A stretch of 64,000 nucleotides of DNA from NCBI GenBank assembly GCA_963829015.1, contig CAWHGR010000005.1, forward strand, positions 12,738 to 76,737, read 5' to 3'. The notes below the pieces were generated by a model. It was not told the origin of the DNA. It was given only the letters and a program-made list of their open reading frames with translations, and searched no databases. The number at the start of each line of letters is the position of its first letter. The stretch's first letter is position 1. Origin of the DNA: an uncultured Planctomycetota bacterium. GTDB taxonomy: Bacteria; Planctomycetota; UBA1135; GCA-002686595. Positions 26,819-59,309 of the stretch are shown piece after piece. The translations under genes were made by a program, and so were the position numbers.

Positions 26819-27040
26819 GATGGCGGTAATTCCTTTTGATTCTCGGCTTTTACCAACGTTCGCATGTCTTGTGTATCACTGGGCGTCTCGGGACATCGCC
26901 TCCGCCATTCAACACAACGGGTGGTTGTCGTGGCCGCCATATTGGTGATAAAGCGATTGTCTTGGTGGGACATTTTTTGGAGTATCCGCGTTGACTGAGC
27001 GCTCCATAGGCCCAATGTACGGGTGGAAAGGTGACGGCAG

Positions 27041-32221: not shown

Positions 32222-32407
32222 ATGGCCGTGCCGAAAAAGAAGACGTCGCCGTCGAGACGCGGCATGCGGCGTTCCGCCGACGCGTTGAAGCCGCCGACCT
32301 ATGTGGAAGACAAGGATTCCGGCGAGTTGCGCCGGCCCCATCACATCGACATGAAAACCGGCATGTATCGCGGCCGCCAGGTGTTCAAGGTGAAGTCCGA
32401 GGCCTGA
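32222..32407 (+). CDS. rpmF: 50S ribosomal protein L32
   Basis: [54 protein letters not shown] is the canonical alphaproteobacterial L32. A GAGGAG Shine-Dalgarno sequence lies upstream. Confidence 0.95.
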
Positions 32408-32900: not shown

Positions 32901-32945
32901 CCTGCACTCCGCCTGAGCGCGCCGCGCGCGACGAAATCGAGCCCT

Positions 32946-34525: not shown

Positions 34526-34860
34526 AGCGATGGCGCTTTGCCGTTGAGCCCGGCCCCGAGCGCCGGCCGGCCACCCTGAAGCGGCAGAATTACCTCTTTG
34601 TTTAGTGTATTTGGTTACGTTCCCGATAGATTTCGCCGCGTCGATGGGGATTGGCCGTGGGCACCACCAAGAAGCTGTCGGCTGCGCCGGCCCGAGCCGT
34701 GCCGCCGGCCGGAGCCGTGCCGATGCCGGCGCAGCCGGGGCCGAGCGGAAAGTCCGTCGCTCGCCGCCGGCGCCGACTGAGGTGGATCGCCGCGGAGCGT
34801 GACGATGCCCGCAGCGTTGATCTGGCAGCGCCGCGGGAGCATCCTTTGCGCGAGGCGCGC

Positions 34861-37591
34861 ATGTCCCGCTCACGAATCGGCCGCTCCGCTCTCGCACTGA
34901 CGCTCGCGCTCGTCGCGCTGCTGGCCGCGATCGGCGTGCTGGCGTGGTTCGTGGTGCGCGGAAACTCGGCGCGCGGAACTGAAAGGGCAGACAATCCCAA
35001 GATCGAACTGCGCAGCGATCCGCAGGCCGACCTGTCGAGCGGACAAGATGCCGCTCGAGGCGCGCAGCGCGGAGAAGGGCGAGGCGGGCGGCGGGGGAGC
35101 TCAGGGCGGCGCCGAGGGTTCGACGGGCACCGGCACGCTGCGCATCCACGTGCTCGACGAGGAGACGCGCGCGCCCATCCCCGACCTGCAGTTCGTCGCC
35201 TACCGCGAGCGTGGCGGGGTGAAGGAGCTCGGTCGCGGACGGACGGACAAGGACGGCCGCGCGGAGCTGCGCGAGGTCGAGGCGAACACCGTCATCGTGC
35301 GCACCGAACGCAGACCTCCGCACGCCGAGCAGACGGGAGCGGTGTGGCTCACCAACGGCGCGACGAAGGAGCTCGAGATCCTCGTCGGCGCAGGTGGTGC
35401 CTTCGTAGGGCGCGTGATCGACGATCTCGAGCGGCCGATCGAGGGCGCAGAGATTCGGATCCAAGGTCAGCGCGAGCCGGGGCCGCCCGATTCCCTGAGC
35501 GGTCCCGACGGTCGATTCCGCGTCGGGTGCCTTGCGAGCCGGCCGGGTTCGGTGTGGATCGTCGACGGTGCGATGCGGCCAGAGGGTTGGGGCGAGGTCT
35601 ACCTCTCGGCGAGCCGCGACAACATGAGCACAGGGGGCAGGGGGACACCGCTCCCTGGCAAGGACGTCGACCTCGGCGATCTTCGGCTTTACCGCGCGAC
35701 GACCTACACGGGGCGGCTCTTCGACGCGGGCGGTCGGCTCGTCGCCGGCGCGCTGCTCAGCCAGGCCTGGGGGCCCGCGCACGGTCCCGCGGACCCCCAG
35801 TTCCAACTCGCGCCGGGCGAAGTGCTGACCGACGGCGGGGGGAGCTTCGAGCTGCGCGCGGAGCCCGGGCTCGGGCGCCTGCTCGTTTGGACGCGCGAGG
35901 GTGCGAATCAGCATCTGAAGCTGCCCGAGGGCAAGCCCGGCGAGCGCGTCGATGGGATCGAGCTGCGCTTGCTGCCCGAGACGCTGTTCGAACTGGAGCT
36001 CGTGGATGCGAGCGGAGGGCCGGCGGTGCTCCCCGCACCGGCCGGGGCCAGCGAGCGTGTCCTCACTCCCTGGGCGCGCATGACGAGCTGGGGCAGCGAG
36101 AAGCTCAGCGTGCTCGCGCGCTCCGCCGATGGAGCGCGCGAACGCATCGGCTGCGAGCACGCCGATCCCGACGGCAAGTGGCGTGGGCGACTCGCGATCG
36201 ATCCGCGCGCGATCGGGGAGCTCGAGGTGACCGCGCCGGGATACGCGCCGGCGGTTGAGACCTCGGAGAGCGGCTTCCCCGCGCTCGTGCAGCGCAAACT
36301 CGTGCTGACTCCGTTCCCGACGCTTCGGGTGCGGCTGGTGCCGAAGGACCCCGACGCGAAACCGCTCGACGGAGAGGGCGGATTCGTCACAGTGCAAGTC
36401 TGCATGGCCGATCCGGTGCGTCATGCGGCTGCAAGAAACGGCTGCTGCGGGCTTGGCTCCAGCTGGTACGACCGCTGGCGCGGCGTGCCGCTGGAGATCG
36501 TGATGCCCGTGCGCAAGCAGGCGCCGTTCTGGATCTACGCACGCGGACCGCGGCCGGATGCCGGACCAAAGGGCTTCGCGGGCTTCGGTTACACGGGCGA
36601 GCAGATGCCCTCGGGCGGTCTCGTCGATTTCGCGCGCATCGGACCCTTCGAGCCCGGACCCGAGGTGCACGAGCTCGCCCTCGATCCGAGAGACTTCATG
36701 CGGGGCACGGCCCCAGAGAAGGAGCGCAAGCCGCCCCCGCCGAGCCAGCCGGGCGAGGACCGTCGAGGGCGACTGCGTGCGCACGTCAGCGACGCGCGCA
36801 CGGGCAAACCGATCCGGGCGTACATCTACGTGGAGGGCGGCGGCGCGAGCACCGACGAGAACGGCGACGTGAAGGACCAGCCGGTGCAGGCGGGGAAGGG
36901 AAAGATCGACGTCCAATCCCGAGGCTACCGGATCCTGGACCTCGGCGAACGCACGGTGCCCCAGGGTGAGACTCTCGACCTCGGCTCGATCGCGCTCGAG
37001 CCTTTGACGCGCCACCGCGGCCGCATCCTCGACGCGGACGGCAACGCGCTGCCGCGCGTCTGGCTCGGCGTCGTCGCCGGGGTTGCGGACGCGCAGAACG
37101 AGAATGGCGGCCTGGGGAGCGAACCCGACGGGAGCTTCGAGTTGATCGGAGAGCTTCCTCAGAGCTTCGTGCTGCAGGTCCTGTCGCCGGCCATGCACGC
37201 GGGCTGGGGAGCGCAGGCGCAGCGCTTCGCGCTCGCATCCTGGCCGGAGGACGAAGTGAAGGAGCTACGACTTCGCGAGGTTCCGGAAGGTCGTCGTGAC
37301 CGTCGCGGGTGTCGACCCGCTGGAAGCCTCGCTCGTTCCCAACGTCTGCCCTGCACCTGGCGAGCCGACCGCGACCTGCGACCACAGGCTGGCAAACGTT
37401 CCCCGGCACGAGGAGCTCTGCCGGGGCCTCGAGATCGCTTCGTCGGCGGATGGGCTGCGTTTCGCGTTCCTGCTCGCCCCCGGGCGCTACCAGACTTCTG
37501 GGGCGCGAACCTGATGCACGAGCTGCCGGTCACCGAACTCGAGGTCACCCCCGGCGATACCGACATCGAGCTCGCGATCACCGCACACTGA
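34861..37591 (+). pseudogene. Membrane-anchored multi-repeat (carboxypeptidase-regulatory-like beta-sandwich) protein, paralog A; about 3 frame shifts (about 35040, 37285, 37495)
   Basis: MSRSRIGRSALALTLALVALLAAIGVLAWFVV is the anchor. In the next frame follow GTLRIHVLDEETRAPIPDLQFVAYRE...GRTDKDGRAELREV and further repeats such as FVGRVIDDLERPIEGAEIRIQG...GPDGRFRV and HRGRILDADGNALPRVWLGV. The C-terminal part is split with ORF 37296..37514. Confidence 0.6.
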
Positions 37592-42110: not shown

Positions 42111-42931
42111 ATGAACCCCAAGACCTTCCGCTACTCCGAGGCCGACGGCGTCGGCACGATCCGGCTCGACCGGCCCGAGCGCTTGAACGCGCTGACCTTC
42201 GACAGCTATGCCGAGCTGACGCAGACCTTCGCCGAGCTCGGCAAGCGCGACAGCGTGCGCTGCGTGGTGATCACGGGCACGGGCCGCGCCTTCTGCACCG
42301 GCGGCGACGTGCTCGACATCATCGGGCGGCTGTTCGACGTGCCGGTCGCCGACGTGCACGCCTTCACGCGCATGACCTGCAAGCTGATCGAGAACATGCG
42401 CAAGCTCGAGAAGCCGATCCTCGCCTCGCTCAACGGCACGACCTGCGGCGCGGGCGCGGTGATCGCGGCCGCGGCCGACCTGCGCATCGGGGCGGAGAGC
42501 GCGAAGATCGCGTTCCTGTTCACGAAGGTCGGCCTGTGCGGCGCGGACATGGGCGCGGCCTGGCTCCTGCCGCGCATCGTCGGGCTCTCGAACGCGACCG
42601 AGCTCCTGATGCTGGGCGACTTCATCACGCGCGCAGCGCGCGAAGGAGGTCGGCCTGTACAACAAGGTCGTGCCCGACGCGGAGCTCGAGGCGGCGACGG
42701 CCGAGTGGGCGCAGGAAGCTCGCCAGCGGGCCGAGCCTGGGTCTCGCGGCGACGAAGCGCATGCTCAACGCCGAGGCCTCGATGTCGCTCGAGGCCGCGC
42801 TCTCGGCCGAGGCCTGGATCCAGGCCGAGTGCATGGCGCATCCGGATTATCGCGAGGCCTACGAGGCCTTCGTCGCGAAGCGCCCGACGAACTTCGTCCA
42901 GAACTGGCCCGGCGCGAAGGTGCGCGCGTGA
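42111..42931 (+). pseudogene. Enoyl-CoA hydratase/isomerase family, two frame shifts (about 42625, 42715)
   Basis: [17 protein letters not shown]...[16 protein letters not shown]...[25 protein letters not shown]...[22 protein letters not shown], then [19 protein letters not shown] and [17 protein letters not shown]...[13 protein letters not shown] in other frames. Confidence 0.8.
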
Positions 42932-44078
42932 AGGCGCTGCATCCGCTGCTCGCCGAGCTGCGCGAGCGCGCGAGCATGGCGGCGAAGGGCGCGGAGAAGC
43001 GCCTCGACGCGCTCTCCGAGCGCGACGCGGCGCTCGAGGCGCTGCGCATCGTGCGCAAGGCCGGCCTGACGACCTACATGGTGCCCGAGCGCGACGGCGG
43101 CGCGCACGCGGGCGGATTGTGCGGGCCCGAGACGATCAGCACGCGCGTCCTGTGCGCGCTGCGCGACGAGCTCGCCTGGCACCACGGCCTGCTCGACCTG
43201 ATGCTCGTCGAGCAGGGCCTCGGTTCGTTCCCGATCGCGCTGGGCGGGACGAGCGAGCTGCGCGCGGAGGTCCTGCCCGCCGTCGCGAGTGGATCCAGGA
43301 TCGCCGCCTTCGCGCTGACCGAGCCCGAGGCAGGCTCGAACCTCTCCGACGTCGCGACGCGCGCGACGCGCACGAAGCACGGCTGGCGGCTCGACGGCAA
43401 GAAGACCTTCATCACCAACGCCGGCATCGCGGACTTCTACACGGTGCTCGCGCGCACGCGCGGCGAGCCGGGCGAGGAGGGTCTCTCGATGTTCTACGTG
43501 CCGGCCGAGGCGAAGGGTCTCTCGGTGGCGCCCTTCGAGGTGCTCGCGCCGCATCCGATCGGCGAGGTCGCGCTCGACGCGGTCGAGGTGCCCGAGCGCG
43601 CGCTGCTCGGCCGCGAGCACGAGGGCGTCGCGATCGCGCTCGCGACGCTCGGCCGCTTCCGCACCGGCGTCGCGGCCGCGGCGAACGGCTTCGCGCGCCG
43701 CGCGCTGGACGAGTCGCGCGCGCACCTCTCGCAGCGCAAGCAGTTCGGCCGGCCGCTCGCGACGTTCCAGGCGCTGCGCTTCGACATCGCCGAGATGGAC
43801 GTGCGCCTGCGCGCGGGCCAGCTGCTTGTCGGACGAGGCCGCCGAGCTCGTCGACGCGCGGCGCCAACGCGACCGCCGCCGTAGCGCGCGCGAAGCTCTT
43901 CGCGACCGAGAGCGCCTCCTGGATCTGCGACCGCGCGGTTCAGCACTTCGGCGGACTGGGCGTGAAGCGCGGCACGGTGGTCGAGCGCCTGTTCCGCGAA
44001 ACGCGCGCGCTGCGCATCTACGAGGGCACGAGCGAGATCCAGAAGCTCGTGCTGGCGCGCGAGCTGTTCCAGTCCTGA
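42928..44078 (+). pseudogene. Acyl-CoA dehydrogenase family, two frame shifts near 43825-43870
   Basis: [53 protein letters not shown]...[27 protein letters not shown]...[21 protein letters not shown], then [24 protein letters not shown]...[21 protein letters not shown]. Confidence 0.85.
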
Positions 44079-45181: not shown

Positions 45182-48100
45182 TCAGGGCAGACGCACCTGC
45201 GTCCGCCCGTGCGCCGGGATCTCGACCTCGATGGGGGAGTCCGTCTTCCCCGCGACGATCACGCGCGCCTTCGCCGCGGGCAACGCATCGAGCGTCGCGT
45301 GTCCGCTTGCGTCGAGGATCGCGTGCATGGTCCAGAGTGCGCCGTTGGGGAGACCCGCATGCACCTGGATCGCGGCGCCCGGATTGCCCTCGACGTCGAG
45401 AGCTCCGAGTTCACACTCGAGCACCCAGCGCAGTCCATCGCTCGGGACGGTCAGGCGTGCCTCGATGCAATCATCCCGGTCGACCGTGCCTGGCGAGCGC
45501 AGCGAGAGGATCTGCGTGCCGAACGTGGCGGCCTGCAGACGAAAGCTGCTCTTCGCGGAGAGCAGAGTCGCCCTCTGGTAAGCATCCCACCAGCGATCCT
45601 CCGGCGCGAGCGTGGCCGTCCAAGACGGACAGGCATGGCCATCGAGCAACATCCGGCCTTCGAGGCAGCGCGACTCGGGCCCACGTACATCGAAGTCGCA
45701 GGAGCTCGTCTGGCTTGCCGTGACCTCGACGCGCTTCAGCAGGGAGTCCTCGATCTGCGTGCCTGCGGGCAGCAGTTGGGAAGAGTTGCTGGTGTCCGGC
45801 ATCACGCGCAGCCACCAGCTTCCCGGAGCCAGTCCATCGATGCTGTAGCTGCCATCGGGCGCGATGCGTTCGCAGCGCGGATTGTCGAGGCCGCAGGAGT
45901 ACAGCACCTGTGCTGCGCGCCCGCGCGTCTCGAGCGTTGTTTCCACATGTCCCTTGATGGACCCGGATGCGGCGACATCGATGACGAGGCCCTCGAGCGG
46001 GTGACCGACGGCGAGTTCGACAGGCTGCGTGAACACGACATTCCCCGTGCGGCCTTCGCCCCAGAGCATGAACCGCCCAGAGCCAGAGACCCCGATTGCG
46101 AAGCTCCCATCGTCCCGCACGCTGGCCCTCGTCCCAGGCTCGGCGAGTTGCGGCATCCCGTCATTGCGCAGACGAGGCTCGCCGAACGGGGCATCAAGGT
46201 GGACCACCAACCAGTTCTCCGGGCCTCCATTGCCGACGACGCGGCCACTCACCGAGGACGAGTCGGGCAGATGGAATGCGATCGTCGTGGGCACGTTCTC
46301 CTGCGTGAAGGGACCTTGCTCCTGCGCTGAGAAGCCGTCAGCCCCCACGCGTACCTTGAACGGTCTCGCTCGCGCAATCTGCGAGTACGTTCCGCCCGGC
46401 GCCGTGACCGTCCCCTCGAAGCCCGTGCCGTCCTCGGTATGCACCCCGAGCGAGTAGCGCTCGACTGGCGCGCCTGAAGGATCGTCGACGTGGACGTCGA
46501 AGCGGCGCGCGGGCGGCAGCTTGAGGACGAGTCCGAGTTCGCCCGGACGCACGCCGCGCAGCACGGCCTCGCCGGAGTCGCCGCCCGAGTCGCGCGCATA
46601 CAGCTCCACGAGCATCGCCGAACTGCCCACGAGCGTGAACGTCCCGTCCTTCTCGGCGCGCGTGCCGACGAACTCGTCCTCCGCGCCGAAGGTGTACTCG
46701 AGCTCCGCGTCCGCGCAGGGCTTCCCGTCTGCCGTGAGCACGGTACCGCGGATCGCAATGGCGCAGTCCTCGAGCACGAGGTCCGGCACGACGAACTGCT
46801 CTCCCGTCGAGAGCAGGAAGGGCTCGGCAAAAGCCCCTGAGCGCTTCTCGGCTGTCGCGTAGACCCGGAAGCAGCCCACGGGTACGCCAGGCATCGAGAA
46901 CGATCCATCGCTCGCGCACACCGCGCTGCGCAGCTGGGTCGAACGACTGAAGCTGCCGCGCTGTGCCTGAGCCCGCTCCTCGAGCGAGAGATCGGGGTAC
47001 ATCAGCTGCACCCTGGATTTCGCGAGCGGGGTCCCATCGCTGGCGATGCACCGCCCGGAAAGATCGGCGCCATCCTGAAGCACGACATCACCCAGAGCGC
47101 TCGGCTCTCCGAGCACGAGGGTCACAGCGACCTTGCGCGTAGCGTAGCCGCGGCACGAGAGCTCGAACTCGCCATCCCATGTGTTGGGCGGGAGGCCCGC
47201 GCGCTTCCCGCGCCGGCGCGAGCGGTCCGCATCGCGAATCGAGACCGAGGCTATCCCCGCGGCGTCGCTCAACGCCTGCGGCGCTTCCTCATCGGTGCAC
47301 TCGCGAATCGCTGAGCGGTCCGTCAGTTTCATCCGCGCCCCGCCGATGGCGACGCCGTGTGCGTCGAGGACGCGCGCAACCACGCGGGCGACGGGCTCCT
47401 CGCTCGCCGCGGACTTGATCGGATCCGCGGCGCTTGCAGGAGGATGGGCTTCCATGCGCTCCGAGTCCGACATCGGTGCGGAGAGCAGCCGCGCAGAGTC
47501 CTCGGCGAGCACAGGCTGGGAGTTGGCGAGCTCCTCGGGCGCATGCTGCGCACGGAGCACGGCATGGGCAGCAAAGCCCGCGAGACCGACGAGCGCGATG
47601 CCAGCAGCGAGCTTGACCCAGGTCGCGATCACGACTGCGGTAGCAGCAGCGGGCAATGCGCTGCTGTCGAGCCTTGCGAGAGGCGCGAGCACCATCGCCC
47701 AGGCCTGGCGATCCCCGCCGGCGCGCTCGTCGAGCTCGCGGCGCAGACACTCGAGCGCCTTCTGCAGTCGCGTGCGCACGGTGCTGTCCGGCACGCGCTC
47801 GCGCTCGGCGATCTGGCGCGAGTTCAAGCCGTGGAAGTAGCGACCGATGATCACGCGCCGCAGCGGCTCGTCGAGCGCTTCGATGGCCGCGACGAGGCGC
47901 CGCTGTGCGTCGAACGTCGGTCGCCGTGTCGATCCCCGCCGAATCATCTTCGCGGCGGCGCGTGAGAGTGCTCGCGCTCGCTTGCGTCGCTCTTCGCTGC
48001 GACGGCGGTTCGAGGCCGAGCTCTGCACGACGCGCGCCCACCACGCGCGCAGGCCGTCGCCGGCGGTCGGCGGGCGCTTCAGGGCCGCGACCCAGGCATC

Positions 48101-48235
48101 TTGCGCGACGTCGTCGGCCTCGTTGGGGTCGGAGAGCAGTGCGCGCGAGAGCATGCGCACCCAGTCCGCGTGCGCGAGCAGCTCGTCGGTGGTGGCCGGG
48201 CGGTTCCTGTCGGGGTCGGGTGTGCGCGAGTTCAT
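45182..48235 (-). CDS. ECF sigma-70 factor fused via one TM helix to a ~790-aa extracytoplasmic repeat domain (first ATG 48235; the open frame also begins at GTG 48247)
   Basis: Region 2: ADDVAQDAWVAALKRPP...LRAWWARVVQSSASNRRR. Region 4: LDEPLRRVIIGRYFHGLNSRQIAERERVPDSTVRTRLQKALECLRREL. TM helix: AAATAVVIATWVKLAAGIALVGLAGFAAHAVL. These are followed by repeated units such as IRGTVLTADGKPCADAELEY...KDGTFTLVG. There is no stop or frame break in 1021 codons. Confidence 0.8.
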   Translation of the reverse strand: MNSRTPDPDRNRPATTDELLAHADWVRMLSRALLSDPNEADDVAQDAWVAALKRPPTAGDGLRAWWARVVQSSASNRRRSEERRKRARALSRAAAKMIRRGSTRRPTFDAQRRLVAAIEALDEPLRRVIIGRYFHGLNSRQIAERERVPDSTVRTRLQKALECLRRELDERAGGDRQAWAMVLAPLARLDSSALPAAATAVVIATWVKLAAGIALVGLAGFAAHAVLRAQHAPEELANSQPVLAEDSARLLSAPMSDSERMEAHPPASAADPIKSAASEEPVARVVARVLDAHGVAIGGARMKLTDRSAIRECTDEEAPQALSDAAGIASVSIRDADRSRRRGKRAGLPPNTWDGEFELSCRGYATRKVAVTLVLGEPSALGDVVLQDGADLSGRCIASDGTPLAKSRVQLMYPDLSLEERAQAQRGSFSRSTQLRSAVCASDGSFSMPGVPVGCFRVYATAEKRSGAFAEPFLLSTGEQFVVPDLVLEDCAIAIRGTVLTADGKPCADAELEYTFGAEDEFVGTRAEKDGTFTLVGSSAMLVELYARDSGGDSGEAVLRGVRPGELGLVLKLPPARRFDVHVDDPSGAPVERYSLGVHTEDGTGFEGTVTAPGGTYSQIARARPFKVRVGADGFSAQEQGPFTQENVPTTIAFHLPDSSSVSGRVVGNGGPENWLVVHLDAPFGEPRLRNDGMPQLAEPGTRASVRDDGSFAIGVSGSGRFMLWGEGRTGNVVFTQPVELAVGHPLEGLVIDVAASGSIKGHVETTLETRGRAAQVLYSCGLDNPRCERIAPDGSYSIDGLAPGSWWLRVMPDTSNSSQLLPAGTQIEDSLLKRVEVTASQTSSCDFDVRGPESRCLEGRMLLDGHACPSWTATLAPEDRWWDAYQRATLLSAKSSFRLQAATFGTQILSLRSPGTVDRDDCIEARLTVPSDGLRWVLECELGALDVEGNPGAAIQVHAGLPNGALWTMHAILDASGHATLDALPAAKARVIVAGKTDSPIEVEIPAHGRTQVRLP

Positions 48236-48315
48236 GTCGGAGTCCACACCGCTCGGAGCCCGACTGTCGGCGGAAAGGCGCGAATCCGCAAGGCGGGACC
48301 GCGCCTGGCACTGGG

Positions 48316-48333: not shown

Positions 48334-49530
48334 ATGACCTTCGACCCCGAACGCTTCCGCGCGAGCTTCCCGATCGTCGAGGACACGACCTACCTCGTCA
48401 ACCACTCGCTCGGCGCGATGCCGGCGAGCGTGCCGGACAAGCTGCGCGAGTTCGCGGAGCAGTGGGCCACGCGCGGCGTGCGCGCCTGGGGCGAGGGCTG
48501 GTGGAGCGCGCCGGTCGACGTCGGCAACGTGCTGGCGAAGATCGCCAACGCGCCGACGGACTCGATCGCGATGCACCCGAACGTCTCGACGGTGCAGTCG
48601 GTGATCGCCTCGCGCGCTCGACTTCTCGAAGAAGCGCAACAAGGTCGTCTACACGGACCTCGAGTTCCCGACGAACATGTACGTCTGGGAGGGGCAGCGG
48701 CGCTTCGGCGCGCGCATCGAGTGCGTGAAGACGGACGGCGTGAGCGTCGACCACGAGCGGCTGCTCGCGGCGATCGACGAGGAGACGCTGATCGTTCCGC
48801 TGTCGCACGTGTGCTTCAAGAGCCACTTCCTGGTCGACGCGCAAGGCGGTGTGCGACAAGGCGCGCGCGGTCGGCGCGCTGGTGCTGCTCGACACGTACC
48901 AGTCGCTCGGCACCGTGCCGGTCGACGTGCAGGCGCTGGGCGTGGACATGATCTGCGGCGGCTCGGTCAAGTGGCTCTGCGGCGGGCCGGGTGCGGGCTA
49001 CCTCGTACGTGCGGCCCGATCTGCAGGACAAGCTCGAGCCGCGCATCACCGGCTGGGCCGCGCACGCGGCACCGTTCGCGTTCGAGACGGGCCCGCAGCG
49101 CTATGCCAAGGGCATCCGGCGTTTCCTGAACGGCTCGCCCGCGGTGCCGAGCCTGCTCGCGGCGACGGCAGGATACGAGATGGTGCTCGAGGCCGGCGTG
49201 CAGAACATCCGCGCGCACTCGACGAAGCTCACGGAGAAGCTGCGCGCGGACATGCTCGCGCGCGGCTTCACGATCAACAGCCCGGTCGATCCCAAGCAGC
49301 GCGGCGGCACGCTCACGGTCGGTCTCGCGGAGGACGAGCAGGGTCCGGCCTGGGTCAAGGCGCTCGAGGCGCGCGGGATCCTGGTCGATCATCGGCCGAA
49401 TGCGGGCATTCGCGTCTCGCCGCACTTCTACACGCTCGAGGACGAGCTCGAGGAGTTCGCCGAGGTGATGAGCGAGCTGCGCGCGAAGCGCAAGTGGCGC
49501 GAGTTCGTCAGCAGCCACGCGGCGTACTGA
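48334..49530 (+). pseudogene. Class-V PLP-dependent enzyme, kynureninase-like; three frame shifts (about 48610, 48845, 49005)
   Basis: YLVNHSLGAMPASVPDKLREFAEQWATRGVRAW...DSIAMHPNVSTVQSV; VVYTDLEFPTNMYVW...; LLDTYQSLGTVPVDVQALGVDMICGGSVKWLCGGPGAGYL (PLP-Lys context like kynureninase S-x-K-x-L-x-GGPG); ITGWAAHAAPFAFE...GTLTV...IRVSPHFYT. Confidence 0.7.
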
Positions 49531-49569: not shown

Positions 49570-49578
49570 TGGTATCGT
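49570..49578 (+). promoter_or_regulatory. Extended -10-like element TGgTATCGT, 10 nt upstream of ATG 49589
   Basis: Read directly from the sequence. Same spacing class as the elements at 44082 and 48316. Confidence 0.3.
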
Positions 49579-49588
49579 GGGGTTCCCC

Positions 49589-50461
49589 ATGACGACCAAG
49601 TCGCTCACCCTGTTCGATCTCGCGCCCGGCAAGGACCTGCTCGGGCAATACACCATCCGCCGTGCGCACCGCCAGGGCGGGATGTCGACCACCTTCGAGG
49701 TCGAGGACAAGAAGCGCAAGTCGGCCTGCGAGGTGCAGGTCTTCCCCGCGGCGCTGTTCGAGAGCGCGCAGCAGGCGCGCGAGTTCGCCGACAGCCTCGC
49801 GGCCTGGACGCGCGTGGAATCCAAGCACGTGCTCGCGTCCTTCGACGTGCACGTGCTCGAGGACGGCTCGATCCTGTACGTGACGGACATGCCGATCGGC
49901 AGCTCGCTGCGCGAGTGGCTGCGCGCGCACCCGGTCAGCTCGCCCGCGACCGTGATCGACATCGGCTGCCAGCTGCTCGAGGGGCTCAGCGCGGTGCACG
50001 CCGCGGGTCTCGTGCACGGCGACATCAAGCCGCACACGATCCAGATCGAGGACGGCAAGAAGCTGTGCCTCGTGCTGGCCGACGGCGGCATCACGCCCGG
50101 CCTGTGGACGGCCAAGCACCTGGGCGACAAGACGGCGCTGATCGGCACGCCCTTCTACGCGCCGATCGAGCAGTTCGGCGGCGAGTCGCCCAACGTGCAG
50201 TCGGACATCTACAACGTCGCCACGGTGCTCTTCGAGGCCGCGACGGGCACGATCCCCTGGAAGGGCAAGAGCTTCATCGAGGTCTTCCAGTCCAAGCTCG
50301 ACAAGCGCCCGCCGGCGATGAAGTCGCGCGCGCCCAAGGTGGACGTGCCGCCCGAGCTCGAGGACGTGATCGCCGGCGGATTGATGGCCGACAAGAGCGA
50401 GCGCTACGCCACGGCCGACGAGTTCCGCAAGCAGCTGCTGGCGGTGAAGAAGGGGACCTGA
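49589..50461 (+). CDS. Stand-alone Hanks-type Ser/Thr kinase-like protein with degenerate catalytic motifs
   Basis: The kinase fold is recognisable: HAAGLVHGDIKPHTIQI (HRDLKPxN-like), LADGGI in place of DFG, GTPFYAPIEQ (APE-like), SDIYNVATVLFEAATG and ERYATADEF. The beta3 VAIK position reads CEVQVF, so the Lys is absent. Confidence 0.7.
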   Translation: MTTKSLTLFDLAPGKDLLGQYTIRRAHRQGGMSTTFEVEDKKRKSACEVQVFPAALFESAQQAREFADSLAAWTRVESKHVLASFDVHVLEDGSILYVTDMPIGSSLREWLRAHPVSSPATVIDIGCQLLEGLSAVHAAGLVHGDIKPHTIQIEDGKKLCLVLADGGITPGLWTAKHLGDKTALIGTPFYAPIEQFGGESPNVQSDIYNVATVLFEAATGTIPWKGKSFIEVFQSKLDKRPPAMKSRAPKVDVPPELEDVIAGGLMADKSERYATADEFRKQLLAVKKGT

Positions 50462-50489: not shown

Positions 50490-52001
50490 TCAGCGGCTGG
50501 GCGCGACGAGCTGAGCGAGGTGGCGCTGTTGCGCCTCGTTCGCGTCCGCCCGCACGACGAGGTACCAGGCGCGCTGCGGATCCTGCGCACCCGGCTCATC
50601 GAAGCGCAGGCCGAACCATTCGAGCGCCTCGGTGTAGTCGAGCTCGTGCGTGGTCTCGAGCAGCTCGTGGAAGTAGTCCGCCAGGTCCGCGCCCGCGATC
50701 TCGGATGCGCAGGCCAGGAACTGCGCCGGCGTGAAGCCCTTCGCGCCGCTGTAGCGCGCGTAGGCGAGTCGCAGCACGTTGTCGAGGCTCTTCTTCTCCT
50801 GGGTCAGCCGCCGGATGCGCGCGTCGAGCAGGAAGCCGACCACCGGCCCCTTCTCGTAGTAGCTGATCGTGGTCTTCGGATCGCCGCCGACGCCGGAGCT
50901 CGAGGTCCTGCCCGCCGTGAGCGAGGCCTCGGCCAGCGTCTGCACCAGCCGGCCGGGCGTCGTCTGCACCGAGCGGATGTTGCCCGAGAGTCCGGCGAGA
51001 TGTTCCGCGAGCGTGCCCACACCCGAGCGCACGACCGCCAGGTCGCCGTAGTAGGTGGTCAGGCCTTCGGAGATCCACAAGCTCGGCGTGCTCGGGAGCC
51101 TCTCGTAGTCGAAGGGCCCGAGCTCGAGCGGGCGCAGGCGCTTGACGTTGATCGCATGGAAGTACTCGTGGCTGACGTACTTCCACCAGTCGAGCGAAGG
51201 CAGCGGCTCTCTCGGCGCGGGTGAGGAGGAGAGCAGCGTCGAATTCAAGTGCTCGAGGCCGCCCCAGCCGCCGCGCATGGCGTTGAGGAAGACGTAGCGC
51301 TTGAAGGGCAGCTCGCCCAGGAAGGCGCGCTGCTCGGCGACGATGCGCGCGAGCGTCGCGGCGACGGCCGCGCCGTCCCAGGCCCCGAGCGCGCCGAAGT
51401 CTGCCAGCACGTGCTTCGTGCCGCCGACCTCGAACTCGTGCAGGCTGAGCGTGCCGGCGACGACCGGCGAGTCGATCAGGACGTCGTAGTCGGGCGCGCG
51501 GTAGTGGTTCGGCTTGCCGTCCGGCGCCGGGTCGAGCGAGCTGATCGACTCCTTCCAGGCCGCGGGCAGCTCGAGGTCGAGCTCGTAACTGCAACCGTCG
51601 CGCTCCACGGGCGTGATGAACGTCGAGGGGCCGTTGATCACCGCGCAGTCCGTGCCCACCCAGCTGCCGGTGACGAAACGGCTCTGGCAATCGAGCTCGT
51701 ACTCGAGCACCACAGCAACCGCGCCCTGCGTCGCCACCACCCAGTGGTTCGACTTCCGATGCTCGACGGCGAGCGCCACGCCGGCATTCGTGTGCGCCGA
51801 GATGCGCTGGATGTCGCGCGCGTAATCGCCCAGCGCGTAGTAGCCCGGCGACCAGGCCGGCAGCATCAGCTCGAGGCTCGCGCGACCCGCGCACGGGATG
51901 CGCGCCTCGATCTGCGCCTGGTGCGTCTCGGGCGCCGGCGCTCGCAGCGTGTAGACGATCGGATCGGATGTGGCGAGTGCGAGAAGGAGATGCAGGAGCA
52001 T
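50490..52001 (-). CDS. M61 family (glycyl aminopeptidase-like) metallopeptidase
   Basis: LEHLNSTLL...SHEYFHAINVKRLRPLELGPFDY...LWISEGLTTYYGD is the HExxH plus downstream E pattern of M61. An N-terminal signal-like segment is present. Confidence 0.8.
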   Translation of the reverse strand: MLLHLLLALATSDPIVYTLRAPAPETHQAQIEARIPCAGRASLELMLPAWSPGYYALGDYARDIQRISAHTNAGVALAVEHRKSNHWVVATQGAVAVVLEYELDCQSRFVTGSWVGTDCAVINGPSTFITPVERDGCSYELDLELPAAWKESISSLDPAPDGKPNHYRAPDYDVLIDSPVVAGTLSLHEFEVGGTKHVLADFGALGAWDGAAVAATLARIVAEQRAFLGELPFKRYVFLNAMRGGWGGLEHLNSTLLSSSPAPREPLPSLDWWKYVSHEYFHAINVKRLRPLELGPFDYERLPSTPSLWISEGLTTYYGDLAVVRSGVGTLAEHLAGLSGNIRSVQTTPGRLVQTLAEASLTAGRTSSSGVGGDPKTTISYYEKGPVVGFLLDARIRRLTQEKKSLDNVLRLAYARYSGAKGFTPAQFLACASEIAGADLADYFHELLETTHELDYTEALEWFGLRFDEPGAQDPQRAWYLVVRADANEAQQRHLAQLVAPSR

Positions 52002-53498: not shown

Positions 53499-53902
53499 TC
53501 GAGCACGCCGGCCTTGCCGCCGTTCAGTCCCATCAGGTGCAGCTGGCAGCCGGCCGACATGAAGCCCCACTTCACCTCCTGCCAGACGAAGAGCAGCTCG
53601 CCGCCCCTGGCGTCGAGCGTCAGCTGCGAGTCGTGCTCGGCCTTCGAGAGCAGCTTGTGCTCGCCCGGCTCGAGCCAGGTGAACAGGTAGGTCTGCGCCC
53701 CGGTCGCACCGAGCGACTTGCCGTCGAGCATGACTTGCATGCTCACCGCTCCGCCGAGCGACTCGTTGCGGTAGACGTAAAGGCCGCACTTGTCCGGCAG
53801 CGTCTCGAAGGTCTTCGCCTTCTTGTCGGCCTCCACGCTGGCCCTGGGAACGGAAGTACAGGAGCTCACGACGAGCGCGAGCAGGATGGCGAGGGACTTC
53901 AT
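53471..53902 (-). CDS. DUF2846-like lipoprotein
   Basis: MKSLAILLALVVSSC (lipobox), then CGLYVYRNESLGGAVSMQVMLDGKSLGATGAQTYLFTWLEPGEHKLLSKA...GGELLFVWQE. A GGAGA Shine-Dalgarno sequence lies upstream. Confidence 0.6.
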   Translation of the reverse strand: MKSLAILLALVVSSCTSVPRASVEADKKAKTFETLPDKCGLYVYRNESLGGAVSMQVMLDGKSLGATGAQTYLFTWLEPGEHKLLSKAEHDSQLTLDARGGELLFVWQEVKWGFMSAGCQLHLMGLNGGKAGVLECELAESPP

Positions 53903-53999
53903 GATGGTCTCCACTGCGGCGGGATGCCGCGGCGCGCATTGTCGCTTTCGCTCCCGGCTGCCGCAATCCGGCGCAGAGACTATCCTGGCGCAGAGATCC

Positions 54000-56670
54000 A
54001 TGCCCCGCCGCACGCTCGCCATCGTCGCGCTCGCGCTGCTCGCCTGGCTTTTCGTACGAGCCCGGCCGCCAGACGGATCCACGCCCGCACCGCCCGTTGC
54101 GCCGGACTCGCTCGCGCACCCGGCGCCAGGCCTGGAGTCCGAGCCCGCCGCGGTCGAGGCGCCGCAATCGCCGCCCGGCCGTTCGCATCCCGACGGGGCG
54201 CTCTTCGAGCCGCTGCCCGAGGACCCGAGCGGGATCCTCGTGCACCTGCGCGACGCGGCGACGCATGCGCCCGTGCTCGGCGCCGAGGTGTTCGTCTGCG
54301 AAGAGCAGCGCTGGGACTGGTCCTCACTCGCCTACGACTCCGACGCGCCCTGGCCCGACGTCGAGGCCGAGCTGCGCGCGCGCGGCCGGCGCATCGAGAG
54401 CGACACGCAGGGCAACCTGCAGCTCCCGATCCCGTCCGCGTGGCTGGCCGTGATGGCGCGCAAGGACGAGCGCTTCGGCGCGCTCACGCTCGGCTTCGAG
54501 AACGCGCCCGAGGCGCAGCTCGACCTGTACGCGAGCAGCCCCTGCTCCGTGCGCATCCGCGACGCTGCGGGCCGGCCCGTCGCAGGCGAGCAGCTCGTGC
54601 TCGCGACCCAAAACGGGAACGCATTCTGGCGCGGCGCGAGCGACGCGACTGGAACCGCGCGCGTCCCGAACCTCGGCTGGCGGATCGCCGACGGCTCCGG
54701 CGACAGCGAGACCTGGTTCGCGATGGCCAACGACGCCTGCGCCGCGGCGCCGATCCGCTGGTTCGCCAGAGCCGAGCCGGCGCCCTCCGCATTCGAGCTC
54801 GTCGTCGGGGACGCGCAGCGCGTGCGCCTGCACGTCGTCGCCAGCGACGGGACGCGCGTCCCCATCGACGGGCACGTGGGCGTGTCGCCGCGCAGCACGT
54901 CGGGGAGCACCTCGGTGCTGCGCCTGCCGCGGCGCACGAACCCGCAACTGCCCCTCGCGCGCGGCGAGGCGCTCATCGCGCGCGGCGAACCGGGCGGCTG
55001 GCTCGATCTCGAGGTCGGCCTCGCCGGCAGCGTGAGCTTCGAGGCTGCGCTGCGCGTGCCCGCGCGCGGCGAGGCTGCGGGCGAGCTCACGCTGCGCATG
55101 CCCGCGGAGCTGCAGGTCCTGCTGCTGCACCCGACCGACGAGCAGGGCACACCGCTCGCGCGCCAGGAGTTCGAGTGGGTCTCCTGGGGACAGAGGGAGG
55201 GCGACGATCGCCAGCTCGACCAGCACATCGACCGCGTGCGGAGCGACGAAACGGGCCTGCTCGCGCTCGCGATCGCGCGCCTGGATTTGCACCCGCAACA
55301 GGCCGAAGAACCGGCTGGCCCGCGCAGAGCGTTCGTGCACAGCGGCGCCCTGCGTCTGCACGGCGCGCGCGAGCTCGAGAGCGCGACCTTCCCCTTCGCC
55401 GCGCTCGGCGCGGACGCCGTCCACGATCACGGTGCCCTCGCGCTCGCGAGCGCGATGCCGCTCGTGCGCGGCCGCGTCGTCGACGACCGCGGCCAGCCGC
55501 TGGCGCAGGTGCGCATCGGACTCGAGCAGCTGCACGTGTGGGACGGCGACCACGAGCTCGAGAGCCTGGCCGGCGTGGAGACGAAGTCGGGCGCGCGCAC
55601 CGGCGCCGACGGCCGCTTCGTGCTCTACGGCAAGTGCCTCGGCGGTCGCCTGCAGCTCAACCTCACGCGCGAGGGCTACCTCGCGCCGCGCGGCAGCGAG
55701 CAGGAGCTGTTCGAGTGCGGGAGTTCGCCCGACCTGCAGCTCGTGCTGCTCCGGCCGGCGGAGCTCGAGACCAGCGTGCGCGTCCCCGCGCGTCTCGATC
55801 GCCGGCTGGTCTGGCTCATCGACGACGGGAGCCCGGACCTGCGCATGGAGGAGATCGAGCCGCCTGCGGGCGGCGGCCTGCTGGTGCACGACCATGCGGG
55901 TTTCCTGCCCGGGACCTACCGCGTGAGCCTGCGCGAGCTCGACGACAGCACGGCGGCAGCGATCCTGGAGGTGGAGAACGTGCTGCTGCGGCCGGGCGAG
56001 CGCACGCTCGACCCGCGCCTCCTGGACGTCGACCTCATGCGCTTCGCGCTGGCCGGGAATGCGCCTCCGCCGGAGTTGCCCGGCGCAGCCGATCGTGCTC
56101 GAGATCCGCGACCTCGATGGCCGGCCGCTCTCCGACGGGCGGCTGGTCGAGCGCTTCGGCGACTTCAGCTCGGTGCAGGAGTGGCACGGAGGGCGCGTGC
56201 GCATCGAGCCGAACATGCAGCGCGCCTCGCTGACCATCTGGAGTCCGGGCCGGCTGGCCTGGATCGGCGAGTGTCCCGAGCAATCGGGCGAGCTGCGGCT
56301 GCAGCCGGCGCCGATGCTCAAGCTGCAGGTGCGCATCCCGCCCGAGCTGCGCCGCGCGGACTGGCACTTCCGCGTCGAGCCGCGCGTGGTGAGCTCCGAC
56401 CAGCGCCTGTGGGACCTCGCCACGCCGCTCGCGCCCGCGGATGTGGACGCCGATGGATCCGTCGCCTTCGAGATCCCGGGCGAGTTCACGCTCGGGCTGA
56501 GCCTGGTCGCGTTCGTGCTCGATCCAAGCGGCACGAGCTACCGCGAGGGCAGCGCTCCCTGCAGCGTGACCTATCTCACGCTGGAGGTCCCGGCCGGCGA
56601 CGGGCCGCACCCGATCGCGCCCACGCCCGAGGAATGGGCGGCGGCGGAGAAGGCGCTCGCCGGGAAGTGA
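54000..56670 (+). pseudogene. Membrane-anchored multi-repeat protein, tandem paralog B1; one frame shift at about 56060-56085
   Basis: MPRRTLAIVALALLAWLFV is the anchor. The protein is collinear with B3 along its whole length (ELRARGRRIESD, LPIPSAWLAVMARKDERFG, EFEWVSWGQ, ARTGADGRFVLYGKCLGGRLQLNLTREGY, ERTLDPRLLDVDLMRF). The C-terminal module continues in ORF 56059..56670 (PIVLEIRDLDGRPL...EEWAAAEKALAGK). Confidence 0.7.
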
Positions 56671-56702
56671 CCGCGGCTGCGGCGCGCCCTAGTGGGCGCG
56701 TC

Positions 56703-59309
56703 ATGCGCGGGACCATCCTCCTCGGCGCGCTGCTCGTGCTCGGCACGGCGCTCTGGTTCGTCCAGCGACCGGTCGAGCGCATCGGTTGCGAACGGGTGTC
56801 GCAGCTCGAGCCGATTCAGACTGAATCGAGGCGGGATCTGGAGTTCGAAGCAGACGGCCTGTCGGCTCACGCGGCGCGCACGCCCGGCTCGACCGAGGGC
56901 GCGCTGCGCTTCGAGGATCTCGAGCCGGAACCCACCGAGCTCGTCGTGCGGCTGGTGACGGGCGAAAACGAAGCGCCCGTGCTCGATGCGGAGATCTTCG
57001 CGCTCGAGCCCGGCTACGAAGTGTTCGACGTTGAGACTGAGGCGCGCGCGCGCGGTCGCAGGCTGGAGTGCGACGCGAACGGGCGAGTGTATCTGGGGCT
57101 GCCGCGCGCTGAGTTGTTCGTGTGTGCGCGCAAGGGCGAGCTCTTCGGAGGCGCGTGGTTCAGTGCCAGCGACGCGCCCGATGCCAGCCTGAGCCTGATG
57201 ATCACGCACACCTCCCGCGTGCGAGTCCTCTCCACGGCAGGCGAGGCGCTCGCGGGCATCCCGATCGTGATGGGGAATTCGCGAGGCAGCTCCGGGAACG
57301 CGACCACGGGAACGGCGGGGGAGCTGTTGCTGCCCAATGTCGAGTGGCTGATCGAGCACCGGCTCTACGCAAACCCCAGCTGGTTCGTGGGGGTCGATGC
57401 GCCGTTCGAGGAACCTCCTCTGCGCTGGTTCGACTCCGGCGCCGCGGCGCCGCTGTGGATCGACCTCACGCTCCCCGCGGCCAGCGCGCTGCGCCTGCGG
57501 GTGCTGGCCAGTGACGGCACGCCCGTGCCGGTCAGCGGCGAGGTCAGTCTCTACCTGCTCAACGGAGGCGATCACCGCGCCGCCGCACGCCTGAAGCGCG
57601 GGGAGACTACCGCCGTCCCGTTGATCGCCGGCGAGGCGCTGGTTCCGTGCGCCGAGCCGGGAGCATGGCTCGACGCCGACGTGGATCTCGACGGCGACAC
57701 CGCGATCCACCAGAACCTGCGCGTGCCCGAGACCGGCGCGGCGATCGAGCTGCGGCTTCCGAAGAACCTCCAGGCGCTGCTCTTCTGCGCCTGCGACGAG
57801 CGGGGTGTCGCGCTCGCGAGCCGCAAGCTCGAGTGGATCTCCTACTCGCAGGAAGAGGGCGACATCGAGCAGCAGGACACCAGCCACGACTGCGTGCGGA
57901 CGGACGAGCTCGGCCGTTGCGCGCTGGTCGTCGATCGGCGGGACTTGCAGCCGCCGGAGATCGACCCGGACGAGGACCCTCCCAAGCCGAAGCATTGGCG
58001 CGGCATCCTGCGCCTGCGCGAAGGAGCAACCCAGCTCGAAAGCGGGCCGATCGACTTCGGCGACCTCGGGGCCGGGAGTGTCAGGAATCTCGGGCGCGTG
58101 CAGCTCGCGGTCGCACAGCCGCTCGTGCGCGGTCACGTGCGCGATGCGGACGGGAAGCCGCTCGCGCGGTCGAGCATCGGCCTCGTCCAGCTGACCTCTC
58201 TCGATGGCAAGGAGTACCACATCAATCTCCTCGGGGTCGACGACGTCGAGTCGGAGGAGGACGGCAGCTTCGCGATCTTCGGCACCTGCCCGGGCGGCCG
58301 GCTGCGTCTGACGATCGACCGCACGGACTACGACCTGCCGGGCGAGGCGAGCATGCCCGAGTTCGACTGCGGCGCGAGCCCTGACCTGGAGGTCGTGCTC
58401 GCGCGAACCGGCACGCTGTGCACGAGCGTTCTCGCAGATGCCGCCCTGAGCCAGTGGTACCGGTGGGAGCTCGAGGATGCGAACGGTGAACAGCACGAGC
58501 ATCTCTCGGCCGATAACGGTCCCGGCGAAATCCCGAGAGAGTTCCGGTCGCTGCGGCCGGGGCGCGTGCGGGTCCGTCTCGTCCGCAGCGATACGCCGCA
58601 GCCGCCGATCGTTGAGTTCGACGACGTCATCATCCAATCCGGAAGATGCACATTCGACCCGCGGCTCCTGCGCGTGCCGATCCACGTGCCCCCGGGATCC
58701 GCGGCGGTGCTCGTGCGCACACCGGAGCCGCCCCCGATCCCGTTGCACATCGTCGATGAGCAGGGAGGCAGGATCGAAACCGGCTTGCTGATCACGTTCA
58801 CCCACTGCGGCTCGCACCAGACCGAGTTCCGCGGCGGGCGTGTCGATCTGCGCGCTTGCCAGGAGAGCAGCACGATCGGCCTGTGGGCTCCGGGACATAT
58901 GTACTGGGAAGGCCCGTGCCCCGAACGCGAGCGCGAGATGGTGCTGGAGCCGGCGCTGCGCGTGCGACTGCACGTCGACGAGCCCGAGGAGCTGCGCCGC
59001 GCGGGGATCCGCCTGCTCATGGACAGCGGCTTCCCCAAGGTTTGCCTCCAGAACCTCGCCGGTTCGGCCGAACTCGATCCGCAGGGCGACGTGCAGATCG
59101 AGTGCCCGCTCCCATGCCGCATGTGGATCGGCTTGCGCGGGATGGTGCTCGACAAGTCGGGAGCGCTGCGCGGCGCGCAAGTCGAGCTCGAGACCGAGGA
59201 GGACCTTTTCGTCGACGTCACGGACGAGCCGCTCGAGCAGCGATTCGAGCTGAAAATCCGCGCCGAGGAGTGGGCGGCTCTCGCCAGGGCGCTGGGTGTC
59301 GGCCGCTGA
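56703..59309 (+). CDS. Membrane-anchored multi-repeat protein, tandem paralog B2
   Basis: MRGTILLGALLVLGTALWFV is the anchor. It is more divergent than B1/B3 but collinear with them (ARARGRRLECDANG, LPRAELFVCARKGELFG, LEWISYSQ, VRGHVRDADGKPLARSSIGL...EEDGSFAIFGTCPGGRLRLTIDRTDY, FDPRLLRV, ...AEEWAALARALGVGR). Confidence 0.75.
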   Translation: MRGTILLGALLVLGTALWFVQRPVERIGCERVSQLEPIQTESRRDLEFEADGLSAHAARTPGSTEGALRFEDLEPEPTELVVRLVTGENEAPVLDAEIFALEPGYEVFDVETEARARGRRLECDANGRVYLGLPRAELFVCARKGELFGGAWFSASDAPDASLSLMITHTSRVRVLSTAGEALAGIPIVMGNSRGSSGNATTGTAGELLLPNVEWLIEHRLYANPSWFVGVDAPFEEPPLRWFDSGAAAPLWIDLTLPAASALRLRVLASDGTPVPVSGEVSLYLLNGGDHRAAARLKRGETTAVPLIAGEALVPCAEPGAWLDADVDLDGDTAIHQNLRVPETGAAIELRLPKNLQALLFCACDERGVALASRKLEWISYSQEEGDIEQQDTSHDCVRTDELGRCALVVDRRDLQPPEIDPDEDPPKPKHWRGILRLREGATQLESGPIDFGDLGAGSVRNLGRVQLAVAQPLVRGHVRDADGKPLARSSIGLVQLTSLDGKEYHINLLGVDDVESEEDGSFAIFGTCPGGRLRLTIDRTDYDLPGEASMPEFDCGASPDLEVVLARTGTLCTSVLADAALSQWYRWELEDANGEQHEHLSADNGPGEIPREFRSLRPGRVRVRLVRSDTPQPPIVEFDDVIIQSGRCTFDPRLLRVPIHVPPGSAAVLVRTPEPPPIPLHIVDEQGGRIETGLLITFTHCGSHQTEFRGGRVDLRACQESSTIGLWAPGHMYWEGPCPEREREMVLEPALRVRLHVDEPEELRRAGIRLLMDSGFPKVCLQNLAGSAELDPQGDVQIECPLPCRMWIGLRGMVLDKSGALRGAQVELETEEDLFVDVTDEPLEQRFELKIRAEEWAALARALGVGR

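Follow-up and report, generated by a model that had tools for sequence, protein, structure and literature searches.

A conserved planctomycetal family of ECF sigma factors fused to a transmembrane helix and a beta-sandwich ectodomain

How can a sigma factor that is built into a membrane protein communicate with its promoters? The question is raised by one gene within a 64,000-nucleotide stretch of DNA from an uncultured Planctomycetota bacterium (assembly GCA_963829015.1, contig CAWHGR010000005.1, positions 12,738 to 76,737), the whole of which is hereafter called the window. The product of this gene joins in a single chain an extracytoplasmic function (ECF) sigma factor, one transmembrane helix and a large ectodomain of tandem beta-sandwiches, and we infer that it serves as a stand-alone (“one-component”) sensor leading from the envelope to transcription. 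Of the ways in which ECF sigma factors are controlled, that by a fused membrane-spanning extension is the least understood, and the current annotation of the protein, “sigma-70 family RNA polymerase sigma factor”, hides about 80% of it. The family to which it belongs is large, conserved and uncharacterised. The lack of an anti-sigma module, a sharply conserved motif and a cultured host, Saltatorellus ferox Poly30, make this family tractable for two questions: can a sigma factor be silenced by its tether alone, and in what way does an array of non-catalytic beta-sandwiches report on the envelope of Planctomycetota?

Gene structure, sigma domains and family

The mechanical open reading frame (ORF) 45182..48247 on the minus strand starts from the GTG at 48247 and comprises 1021 codons with no interruption. 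Its true start is probably the ATG at 48235, since the orthologues start there and the copy of the protein in the public database (P0001, 100% identical) has 1017 residues. The in-frame GC content at third codon positions (GC3) amounts to 0.77-0.91 in each 100-codon block of the whole ORF, and being even along its length it therefore reads as one continuous gene. The Pfam scan of the ORF revealed four families above their cut-offs: (i) Sigma70_r2 (PF04542; 30.3 bits, cut-off 24); (ii) Sigma70_r4_2 (PF08281; 40.6 bits, cut-off 25.7); (iii) Sigma70_r4 (PF04545; 32.8 bits, cut-off 24.1), which together with the previous model spans aa 116-169; (iv) CarboxypepD_reg (PF13620) in three stretches (79.8 bits, cut-off 32.3). 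A match to Big_1 at aa 275-339 stays below the Pfam threshold, and sigma regions 1 and 3 have no Pfam match in the protein. The NCBIfam model of sigma70-ECF proteins, TIGR02937, was passed with 52.9 bits against a cut-off of 42.9, and none of the NCBIfam ECF subfamily or equivalog models reaches its cut-off for this ORF. With only sigma2 and sigma4 present and the curated ECF model passed, the protein is a member of group 4 (ECF) of the sigma-70 family.

Two AlphaFold2 models of the protein were used, one of the full length (25 sequences, mean predicted local distance difference test score, pLDDT, of 81.9) and one of the N-terminal 286 residues (64 sequences), whose numbering is that of the ORF minus 4. 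Searched with Foldseek, the N-terminal model matches the ECF sigma structures SigH, AlgU, SigW, sigmaE and SigL, and region 4 alone superposes on region 4 of sigmaE and SigL with a TM-score of about 0.8 and a root-mean-square deviation of 0.9-2.3 Å. The family profile gives Mycobacterium tuberculosis SigL as its top match in the PDB (2.8e-25). Across 182 relatives, introduced below, the core-binding and DNA-binding positions of the sigma part are 90-100% conserved, and D46, Q49 and W69 reach 98-100% (Q49 100%, W69 98%). Judged from profile matches, conservation and predicted fold, the sigma domains are bona fide. The only cysteine within aa 1-200 is C167, located in a variable alignment column, and no cysteine consensus exists in the sigma part of the 182 members.

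The extent of the family was established with the sigma part alone. An exhaustive HMMER search with aa 1-200 against 1.84 billion representatives of clusters formed at 50% identity returned 182 clusters at E<=1e-30. Of these 182, the best 150 are 40-68% identical to the query, with alignments that reach aa ~191-199 and lengths whose median is 859 aa; in 140 of 146 of them a hydrophobic segment begins between aa 150 and 270. The search with the whole protein yielded 67 clusters, mostly of 850-1450 aa, all with sigma Pfam domains, 66 with CarboxypepD_reg and 65 with a transmembrane helix at the same position. Fourteen of the 67 are full-length orthologues of 69-28% identity, coming from independent assemblies (JGI metagenomes, NCBI metagenome-assembled genomes (MAGs), ENA and Logan). 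Among 52 relatives picked by sigma similarity alone, regions 2 and 4 occur in every case and CarboxypepD_reg in 49; the other ectodomain families listed for them are CarbopepD_reg_2, Dioxygenase_C-like, Big_1, TTR, SdrD_B and PEGA. WD40 repeats are neither among these families nor detected by Pfam in the protein from the window. Searching by word index with only the sigma domain gave a single match and was uninformative.

A scan of species-representative genomes detected at least 62 loci, nearly all labelled “MAG: Planctomycetota bacterium”, with at least two copies in several genomes. Cultured Saltatorellus ferox Poly30 (NZ_CP036434.1) encodes at least two members (L039 and L045, ~1100 aa and ~610 aa), both with the post-sigma4 motif described below and the transmembrane helix. 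The family is therefore large and almost wholly confined to Planctomycetota, and the initial annotation, made by a model from the sequence alone, had overstated the rarity of the architecture, given at least 182 clusters at 50% identity. Four members (L026, L029, L032 and L055) stand on contigs whose labels are Kofleriaceae, Polyangia, “Proteobacteria” or “delta proteobacterium”; either they were transferred horizontally or the MAG contigs are mis-binned or mislabelled. One orthologue (P0009, encoded at L008 633..3932) carries ahead of its sigma domain a low-complexity N-terminal extension of ~80 aa with TPAGS(S/R)A repeats.

The fusion is real, conserved and encoded by a single gene, and it is not an artefact of assembly, because independent assemblies and about 180 clusters share the junction. 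The uninterrupted ORF, sigma regions 2 and 4, the single hydrophobic helix behind them, the CarboxypepD_reg-like repeats and the lack of both an adjacent anti-sigma gene and an HxxxCxxC motif, all read by the initial annotation from the letters, are borne out by the profile searches, the predicted structure and the examined neighbours. The homologue search suggested there, fused against split, came out in favour of a conserved fusion.

Juxtamembrane helix, membrane segment and ectodomain

A strongly conserved feature of the alignment lies directly behind region 4. Over the 182 members, the ~17 residues past sigma4 are nearly as conserved as the sigma core, with L168 at 95%, R169 at 99%, L172 at 92% and D173 at 86%, followed by G178 (88%), R180 (89%), W183 (96%), L187 (82%) and P189 (79%). 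The motif reads in full (L)D-x3-GGDRxAWxxLxPLA, and its GGDRxAWxxLxPLA part was found in nearly all of the best 150 of the 182 sigma-only relatives. Conservation this strong implies a specific role of the juxtamembrane segment. Functional importance is predicted for the helix, which might inhibit in cis, be recognised by a protease or adaptor, or act at the membrane interface. Neither this motif nor the indel damage of the region, discussed below, had been mentioned in the initial annotation.

Hydropathy analysis detects exactly one hydrophobic segment in the protein (aa ~197-233), modelled as a helix at ORF aa 206-231 or 200-233 in the two AlphaFold2 models, with pLDDT of 66-86. Across the family this segment consists of 27% Ala and 10% Gly; its sequence varies, with a pattern that is kept (G203 80%, K212 62%, G224 65%, W228 68%, P237 86%). 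The linker that follows has a pLDDT below 50 and is free of secondary structure in both models, its character being evident also from the residues that make up the 60 aa behind the helix across the family; it is a candidate region for site-1 cleavage. No HxxxCxxC motif occurs in the protein when its sequence is read directly, and aa 164-285 give no Pfam match to an anti-sigma domain, zf-HC2 included, even at E<=10. The idea that an anti-sigma domain is hidden between sigma4 and the linker was likewise discarded, for nothing relevant emerged at E<=10, also in the same region of a relative.

The ectodomain is modelled as all-beta with pLDDT of about 90 (ORF aa 280-1021). The ectodomain part of the family profile matches NOMO2 and the N-terminal domains of SusC, and the full-length model matches generic multi-sandwich arrays in Foldseek (pilins, MG domains of alpha-2-macroglobulin, adhesins) with low TM-scores, which give no functional clue. 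No catalytic domain was found in the ectodomain by Pfam, by predicted structure or by Foldseek. In three of the sigma-transmembrane fusions (P0040, P0042 and P0051) precomputed Pfam matches assign PDZ domains (PF17820, PF13180, PF00595) to the ectodomain, a hint at peptides, C-termini or proteins as ligands. The search with the ectodomain only returned seven sigma-fused proteins and one without sigma domains (P0215, 831 aa, JGI/Logan), and revealed no version of the family split into sigma and anti-sigma genes. The sigma-less protein begins with a cytoplasmic tail of 4 residues and a signal anchor, continues with a Pro/Ala linker and ends in the same kind of array; an anti-sigma domain is absent from it. 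Its architecture is consistent with an origin of the fusion by addition of a sigma module to a protein with a type-II anchor.

The window contains three other proteins with CarboxypepD_reg according to Pfam (35048..37591, 53790..59309 and 59397..62066), of which the latter two have an N-terminal hydrophobic anchor. These two are encoded in tandem on the plus strand and, at 51% identity, are mutual paralogues. The four anchored paralogues of the sigma protein announced by the initial annotation are thus reduced to three CarboxypepD_reg proteins, two of them anchored and none close to the ectodomain studied here: blastp of these proteins against it gave nothing at E<1e-3, and the best tblastn match had E=0.023. 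The homotypic partner, decoy or ligand relations proposed on that basis also lose their footing, as no similarity extends beyond the Pfam family and the GCCGAC-N14-CGGYGTG motif found upstream of the sigma gene is absent upstream of the three. The 1839-aa protein (53790..59309) has an internal duplication, each half matching the 889-aa protein, and a related gene is syntenic in L001.

Table 1. Features of the sigma-ectodomain gene and its upstream region (window positions; residues in ORF numbering)
Feature	Position	Strand	Residues	Basis
Whole gene, ECF sigma, transmembrane helix and beta-sandwich ectodomain	45182..48235	-		1017 aa from ATG 48235; stop codon 45182..45184
Upstream block GCCGAC-N14-CGGYGTG	48245..48271	-		Invariant in the window and five orthologue groups
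Sigma region 2	47948..48190	-	~20-100	Pfam aa 25-87; AlphaFold2 pLDDT ~90 or above
Sigma2-sigma4 linker segment	47915..47980	-	~90-111	Three 1-nt insertions relative to orthologues
Sigma region 4	47723..47926	-	~108-175	Pfam aa 116-168; Foldseek
Sigma2 and sigma4			~20-175	AlphaFold2 pLDDT >90
Post-sigma4 juxtamembrane helix, motif GGDRxAWxxLxPLA	47672..47722	-	176-192 (17 aa)	Conservation over 182 members; AlphaFold2
GG break, then helix			180-195	AlphaFold2 pLDDT 86 falling to 70 (64-sequence model)
Single transmembrane segment, Ala/Gly-rich	47552..47653	-	~199-232	Hydropathy; AlphaFold2 helix
Disordered Pro/Ala/Ser/Glu-rich periplasmic linker	47411..47551	-	233-279 (~47 aa)	AlphaFold2; composition
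Ectodomain, ~8 tandem beta-sandwiches (CarboxypepD_reg/transthyretin-like/Ig-like)	45185..47410	-	280-1021 (~740 aa)	Pfam; AlphaFold2
Top-scoring CarboxypepD_reg repeat	46268..46492	-	586-660	Pfam

Upstream element, neighbouring genes and reading-frame damage

The loci of five orthologues (P0002, P0003, P0007, P0009 and P0011; nine loci, L001-L009) were compared with the window. In all nine, the exact block GCCGAC-N14-CGGYGTG occurs once per locus, just upstream of the sigma gene, also where the gene context differs, and it is unique in the 64-kb window. ECF sigma factors commonly autoregulate, and the block is a candidate autoregulated ECF-type promoter, with a -35-like CCGAC and a -10-like YGTG separated by 17 nt. 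Five further sites with one mismatch were considered and taken as chance: at least four lie inside coding ORFs, and the one at 15974..16000, maybe upstream of an M20 peptidase gene, differs from the block within the -35-like half. The 10-mer TTCCGCCGAC at 32272 was rejected as well, being located inside rpmF.

The sigma gene is flanked by a divergent aminotransferase-like gene and a convergent gene of unknown function (233 aa). This arrangement is shared by the two closest orthologues; those of ~40% identity have another context, in which HMA and rhodanese genes precede the sigma gene and ACT_7 and MoaA follow it, and no neighbour gene is conserved between close and distant orthologues. An anti-sigma gene is adjacent neither in the window nor in the loci of the five orthologues, and a gene for a TonB-dependent transducer was seen neither in the window nor in related loci. 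The all-versus-all comparison of ORFs from 52 family loci revealed no recurring partner gene; the sigma fusion and the shadow ORF antisense to it were all that recurred. A soluble Ser/Thr protein kinase (49577..50461, plus strand) and an M61 peptidase (50490..52001, minus strand) are encoded near the sigma gene; the kinase is kept beside it in the two closest relatives (L001 and L004) and the peptidase in L004 only, and neither is found near it in the ~40%-identity orthologues. Farther away, a DDE_5 transposase and an AbiEii-type toxin gene (25058..27976, plus strand) coincide with a low-GC patch at 26-28 kb (0.56 compared with ~0.68 elsewhere), which is probably a mobile insertion.

The window copy of the sigma gene shows apparent indels. 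DNA alignment with the orthologues revealed three separate 1-nt insertions in the part encoding the sigma2-sigma4 linker, which move the frame by +1, then +2, and back; their net effect is one extra codon, and the ORF is still open. Alternative frames at these positions give orthologue-like sequence (EREHSHAPP, EDDSAGIDTATD), so that ~22 residues of the linker are probably mis-framed, and aa 89-114 form the sole stretch of the gene that diverges from close orthologues. Similar damage is visible in the flanking genes when compared with the intact orthologues in L001: the aminotransferase gene (kynureninase/aminotransferase-like) passes through frames 1>2>3>1, the enoyl-CoA hydratase gene through 3>1>2 and the acyl-CoA dehydrogenase gene through 1>3. 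A gamma-glutamyltranspeptidase gene is also split over two frames. The broken genes span 42111..44078, 48334..49530 and 32901..34605 (plus strand), with at least seven frameshifts in all. Either the assembly is prone to indels or the region is decaying. The junction of sigma4, motif and transmembrane helix is untouched by the indels, and the fusion itself is therefore not in doubt.

Mode of action and relation to known systems

The reasoning of the initial annotation, that a sigma factor covalently held in the membrane must either be released or act there, stands because the fusion is conserved. Release by regulated proteolysis at site 1 and then at site 2 is proposed here by analogy as the most likely mechanism, and we consider its chances to be about even. 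In the intact protein, the sigma factor would be held at the membrane, inactive or poorly active. An envelope signal, sensed or relayed via the ectodomain, would lead to the removal of the ectodomain by a periplasmic site-1 protease cutting in or near the disordered linker. The short stub left behind would then be cut within the transmembrane helix by a site-2 (RseP-type) intramembrane protease, and the freed sigma factor would transcribe its regulon, probably its own gene included, from GCCGAC-N14-CGGYGTG.

Several features of the protein favour release: the single helix at a fixed distance past sigma4 in 65 of 67 and 140 of 146 relatives, the ~47-aa disordered stub, the Ala/Gly-rich composition of the helix, and the lack of an anti-sigma module or partner gene. 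That a sigma factor itself can be a substrate of a site-2 protease (S2P) is known from Bacillus, where pro-sigmaK is cut directly by the S2P-family protease SpoIVFB. To our knowledge, direct proteolysis data for ECF sigma factors with such extensions exist for IutY alone, and IutY retains an anti-sigma module. In IutY, with sigma factor and periplasmic domain in one chain, Prc shortens the periplasmic domain to ~50 aa and RseP then frees the sigma factor (PMC5411451); the remark of the initial annotation that no mechanism is established for such proteins does not hold in view of this processing (PMC5411451; reviewed in PMC8999054). ECF48, ECF52 and ECF53 are predicted to act likewise by proteolysis (PMC8999054).

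A number of observations weigh against release. All of its steps beyond the anatomy are drawn by analogy, and the analogues differ from the present family, since IutY and ECF52 have an anti-sigma or zinc-binding anti-sigma (ZAS) module between sigma4 and the membrane helix; as the present family has none, tethering alone would have to keep the sigma factor off. The topology is not uniformly supported, in that the count of Lys and Arg (1.21 versus 1.45, positive-inside rule) does not favour a cytoplasmic N-terminus, whereas the net charge (+0.9 versus -0.5) does. The search of the window for a regulon with GCCGAC-N14-CGGYGTG found no gene other than the sigma gene. The indel errors or mutations of the window make fine details of this gene copy uncertain.

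Other readings of the same anatomy have to be set against release. The sigma factor might act while tethered, in the manner of ToxR, CadC and TcpP, recruiting RNA polymerase to membrane-proximal promoters under the influence of conformation or oligomerisation of the ectodomain, with no proteolysis involved. There is no anti-sigma module to be relieved, the conserved juxtamembrane helix and the semi-conserved positions of the transmembrane segment suggest specific signal transmission and not a passive tether, and the C-terminus of sigma4 tolerates extensions in other ECF groups (PMC7826278). However, the gap of ~25-35 residues between sigma4 and the bilayer is tight for a complex of holoenzyme and promoter, the Ala/Gly-rich helix and disordered stub suit a site-2 protease substrate, and such action is not known for any membrane-bound sigma factor, the one characterised tethered ECF, IutY, needing cleavage (PMC5411451), which makes action in the tethered state improbable. 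The post-sigma4 helix may instead be a minimal anti-sigma element in cis, putatively packing on sigma4 or sigma2 and blocking core binding, so that activation would consist in its relief, with or without later proteolysis; in this form it is compatible with proteolytic release. W183 is about as conserved as core sigma residues, yet lies outside canonical sigma4, the helix follows a GG break past the last sigma4 helix and is modelled from 64 sequences with a pLDDT that falls from 86 to 70 (Table 1), and the regulatory C-terminal extensions of ECF41 and ECF42 contact sigma2/sigma4 (PMC7826278, PMC8999054). At 12-16 residues it is far below the size of any known anti-sigma domain, has a pLDDT of only 53-72 in the 25-sequence full-length model and gives no Pfam match, so that built-in inhibition of this kind is rated as rather unlikely.

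It is very improbable that the sigma-like domain is no longer a sigma factor and serves as the cytoplasmic anchor of a scaffolding or adhesin-like protein of the envelope, or is a decoy for RNA polymerase or another partner. The ectodomain does resemble structural arrays (pilins, adhesins, NOMO), and anchored arrays free of sigma domains exist in P0215 and in the window proteins at 53.8 and 59.4 kb, but the sigma2 and sigma4 residues are conserved over the 182 clusters as in working ECFs, the cut-off of TIGR02937 is passed and a conserved ECF-like bipartite element precedes the gene. A junction of two ordinary genes, the sigma factor and a membrane protein or anti-sigma factor, created by an indel or misassembly, could appeal to the three insertions in the sigma2-sigma4 linker and the frameshifts of the flanking genes; it is effectively refuted by the conservation of the junction, collinear from sigma4 through the motif to the transmembrane helix in every orthologue and ~180 further clusters from independent assemblies, and by a continuous GC3 with only aa 89-114 aberrant. 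Going beyond proteolytic release, there is a small chance that the family represents a new regulatory class of ECFs, in which the invariant-Trp helix would be a built-in anti-sigma or switch, the rod of ~8 domains a mechanical or ruler sensor of envelope architecture, and control across the membrane would be exerted by a single chain, with no release or with a self-limiting one (S2P cleavage leaving an Ala-rich degron on the sigma factor).

As an ECF sigma factor with a fused membrane-spanning extension, the protein belongs to a known kind, and it lacks the defining features of the IutY, ECF52 and ECF57 types. Within the literature that was searched, no description of a sigma-CarboxypepD_reg family or of the GGDRxAW motif was found. 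One of the closest counterparts is IutY of Pseudomonas putida (ECF243, a hybrid of cell-surface signalling), which likewise combines a cytoplasmic ECF sigma factor, a single transmembrane helix and a periplasmic domain in one chain (PMC5411451). In contrast to IutY, which has a FecR-type anti-sigma region and a TonB-dependent transducer and serves iron signalling, the present protein has none of these, a FecR domain giving no Pfam match in it; its ectodomain is much larger and its sigma domain nearer to the SigL/SigE type.

The actinobacterial ECF52 (SCO4117), together with ECF48 and ECF53, also possesses a membrane-crossing C-terminal extension with a Pro-rich extracytoplasmic linker and a non-catalytic binding domain, and proteolytic activation has been proposed for these groups (PMC5826349, PMC8999054). 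They differ in having a ZAS-like zinc finger before the transmembrane helix and an extension of up to ~400 aa, whereas the extension here is devoid of a ZAS and measures ~845 aa; phylum, ectodomain and juxtamembrane motif differ as well. The planctomycetal ECF57/ECF01-Gob proteins share the phylum, the multi-copy occurrence, the long extensions of protein-interaction repeats and the lack of an anti-sigma factor (PMC7826278, PMC8999054, PMC7671368), and surveys of planctomycete ECFs with long C-terminal extensions of diverse make-up exist already (PMC7671368, PMC7826278). In ECF57, WD40-like repeats prevail and two conserved Cys could link sigma2 and sigma4 (PMC8999054). Both the WD40 repeats and the Cys pair are absent here, which separates the family from ECF57 as the group is described in that review. 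Jogler et al. in 2012 are said to have placed a transmembrane helix ahead of the WD40 repeats of ECF01-Gob.

With the pairs sigmaE-RseA and SigW-RsiW, the proposed release would share the logic of an envelope signal leading through site-1 cleavage and S2P to a free sigma factor (RseA pathway: PMC8103513). Compared with these canonical pairs and with pro-sigmaK, the major difference relates to construction: here sensor, tether and sigma factor form one chain, there is no anti-sigma factor to degrade, and the extension is C-terminal and transmembrane.

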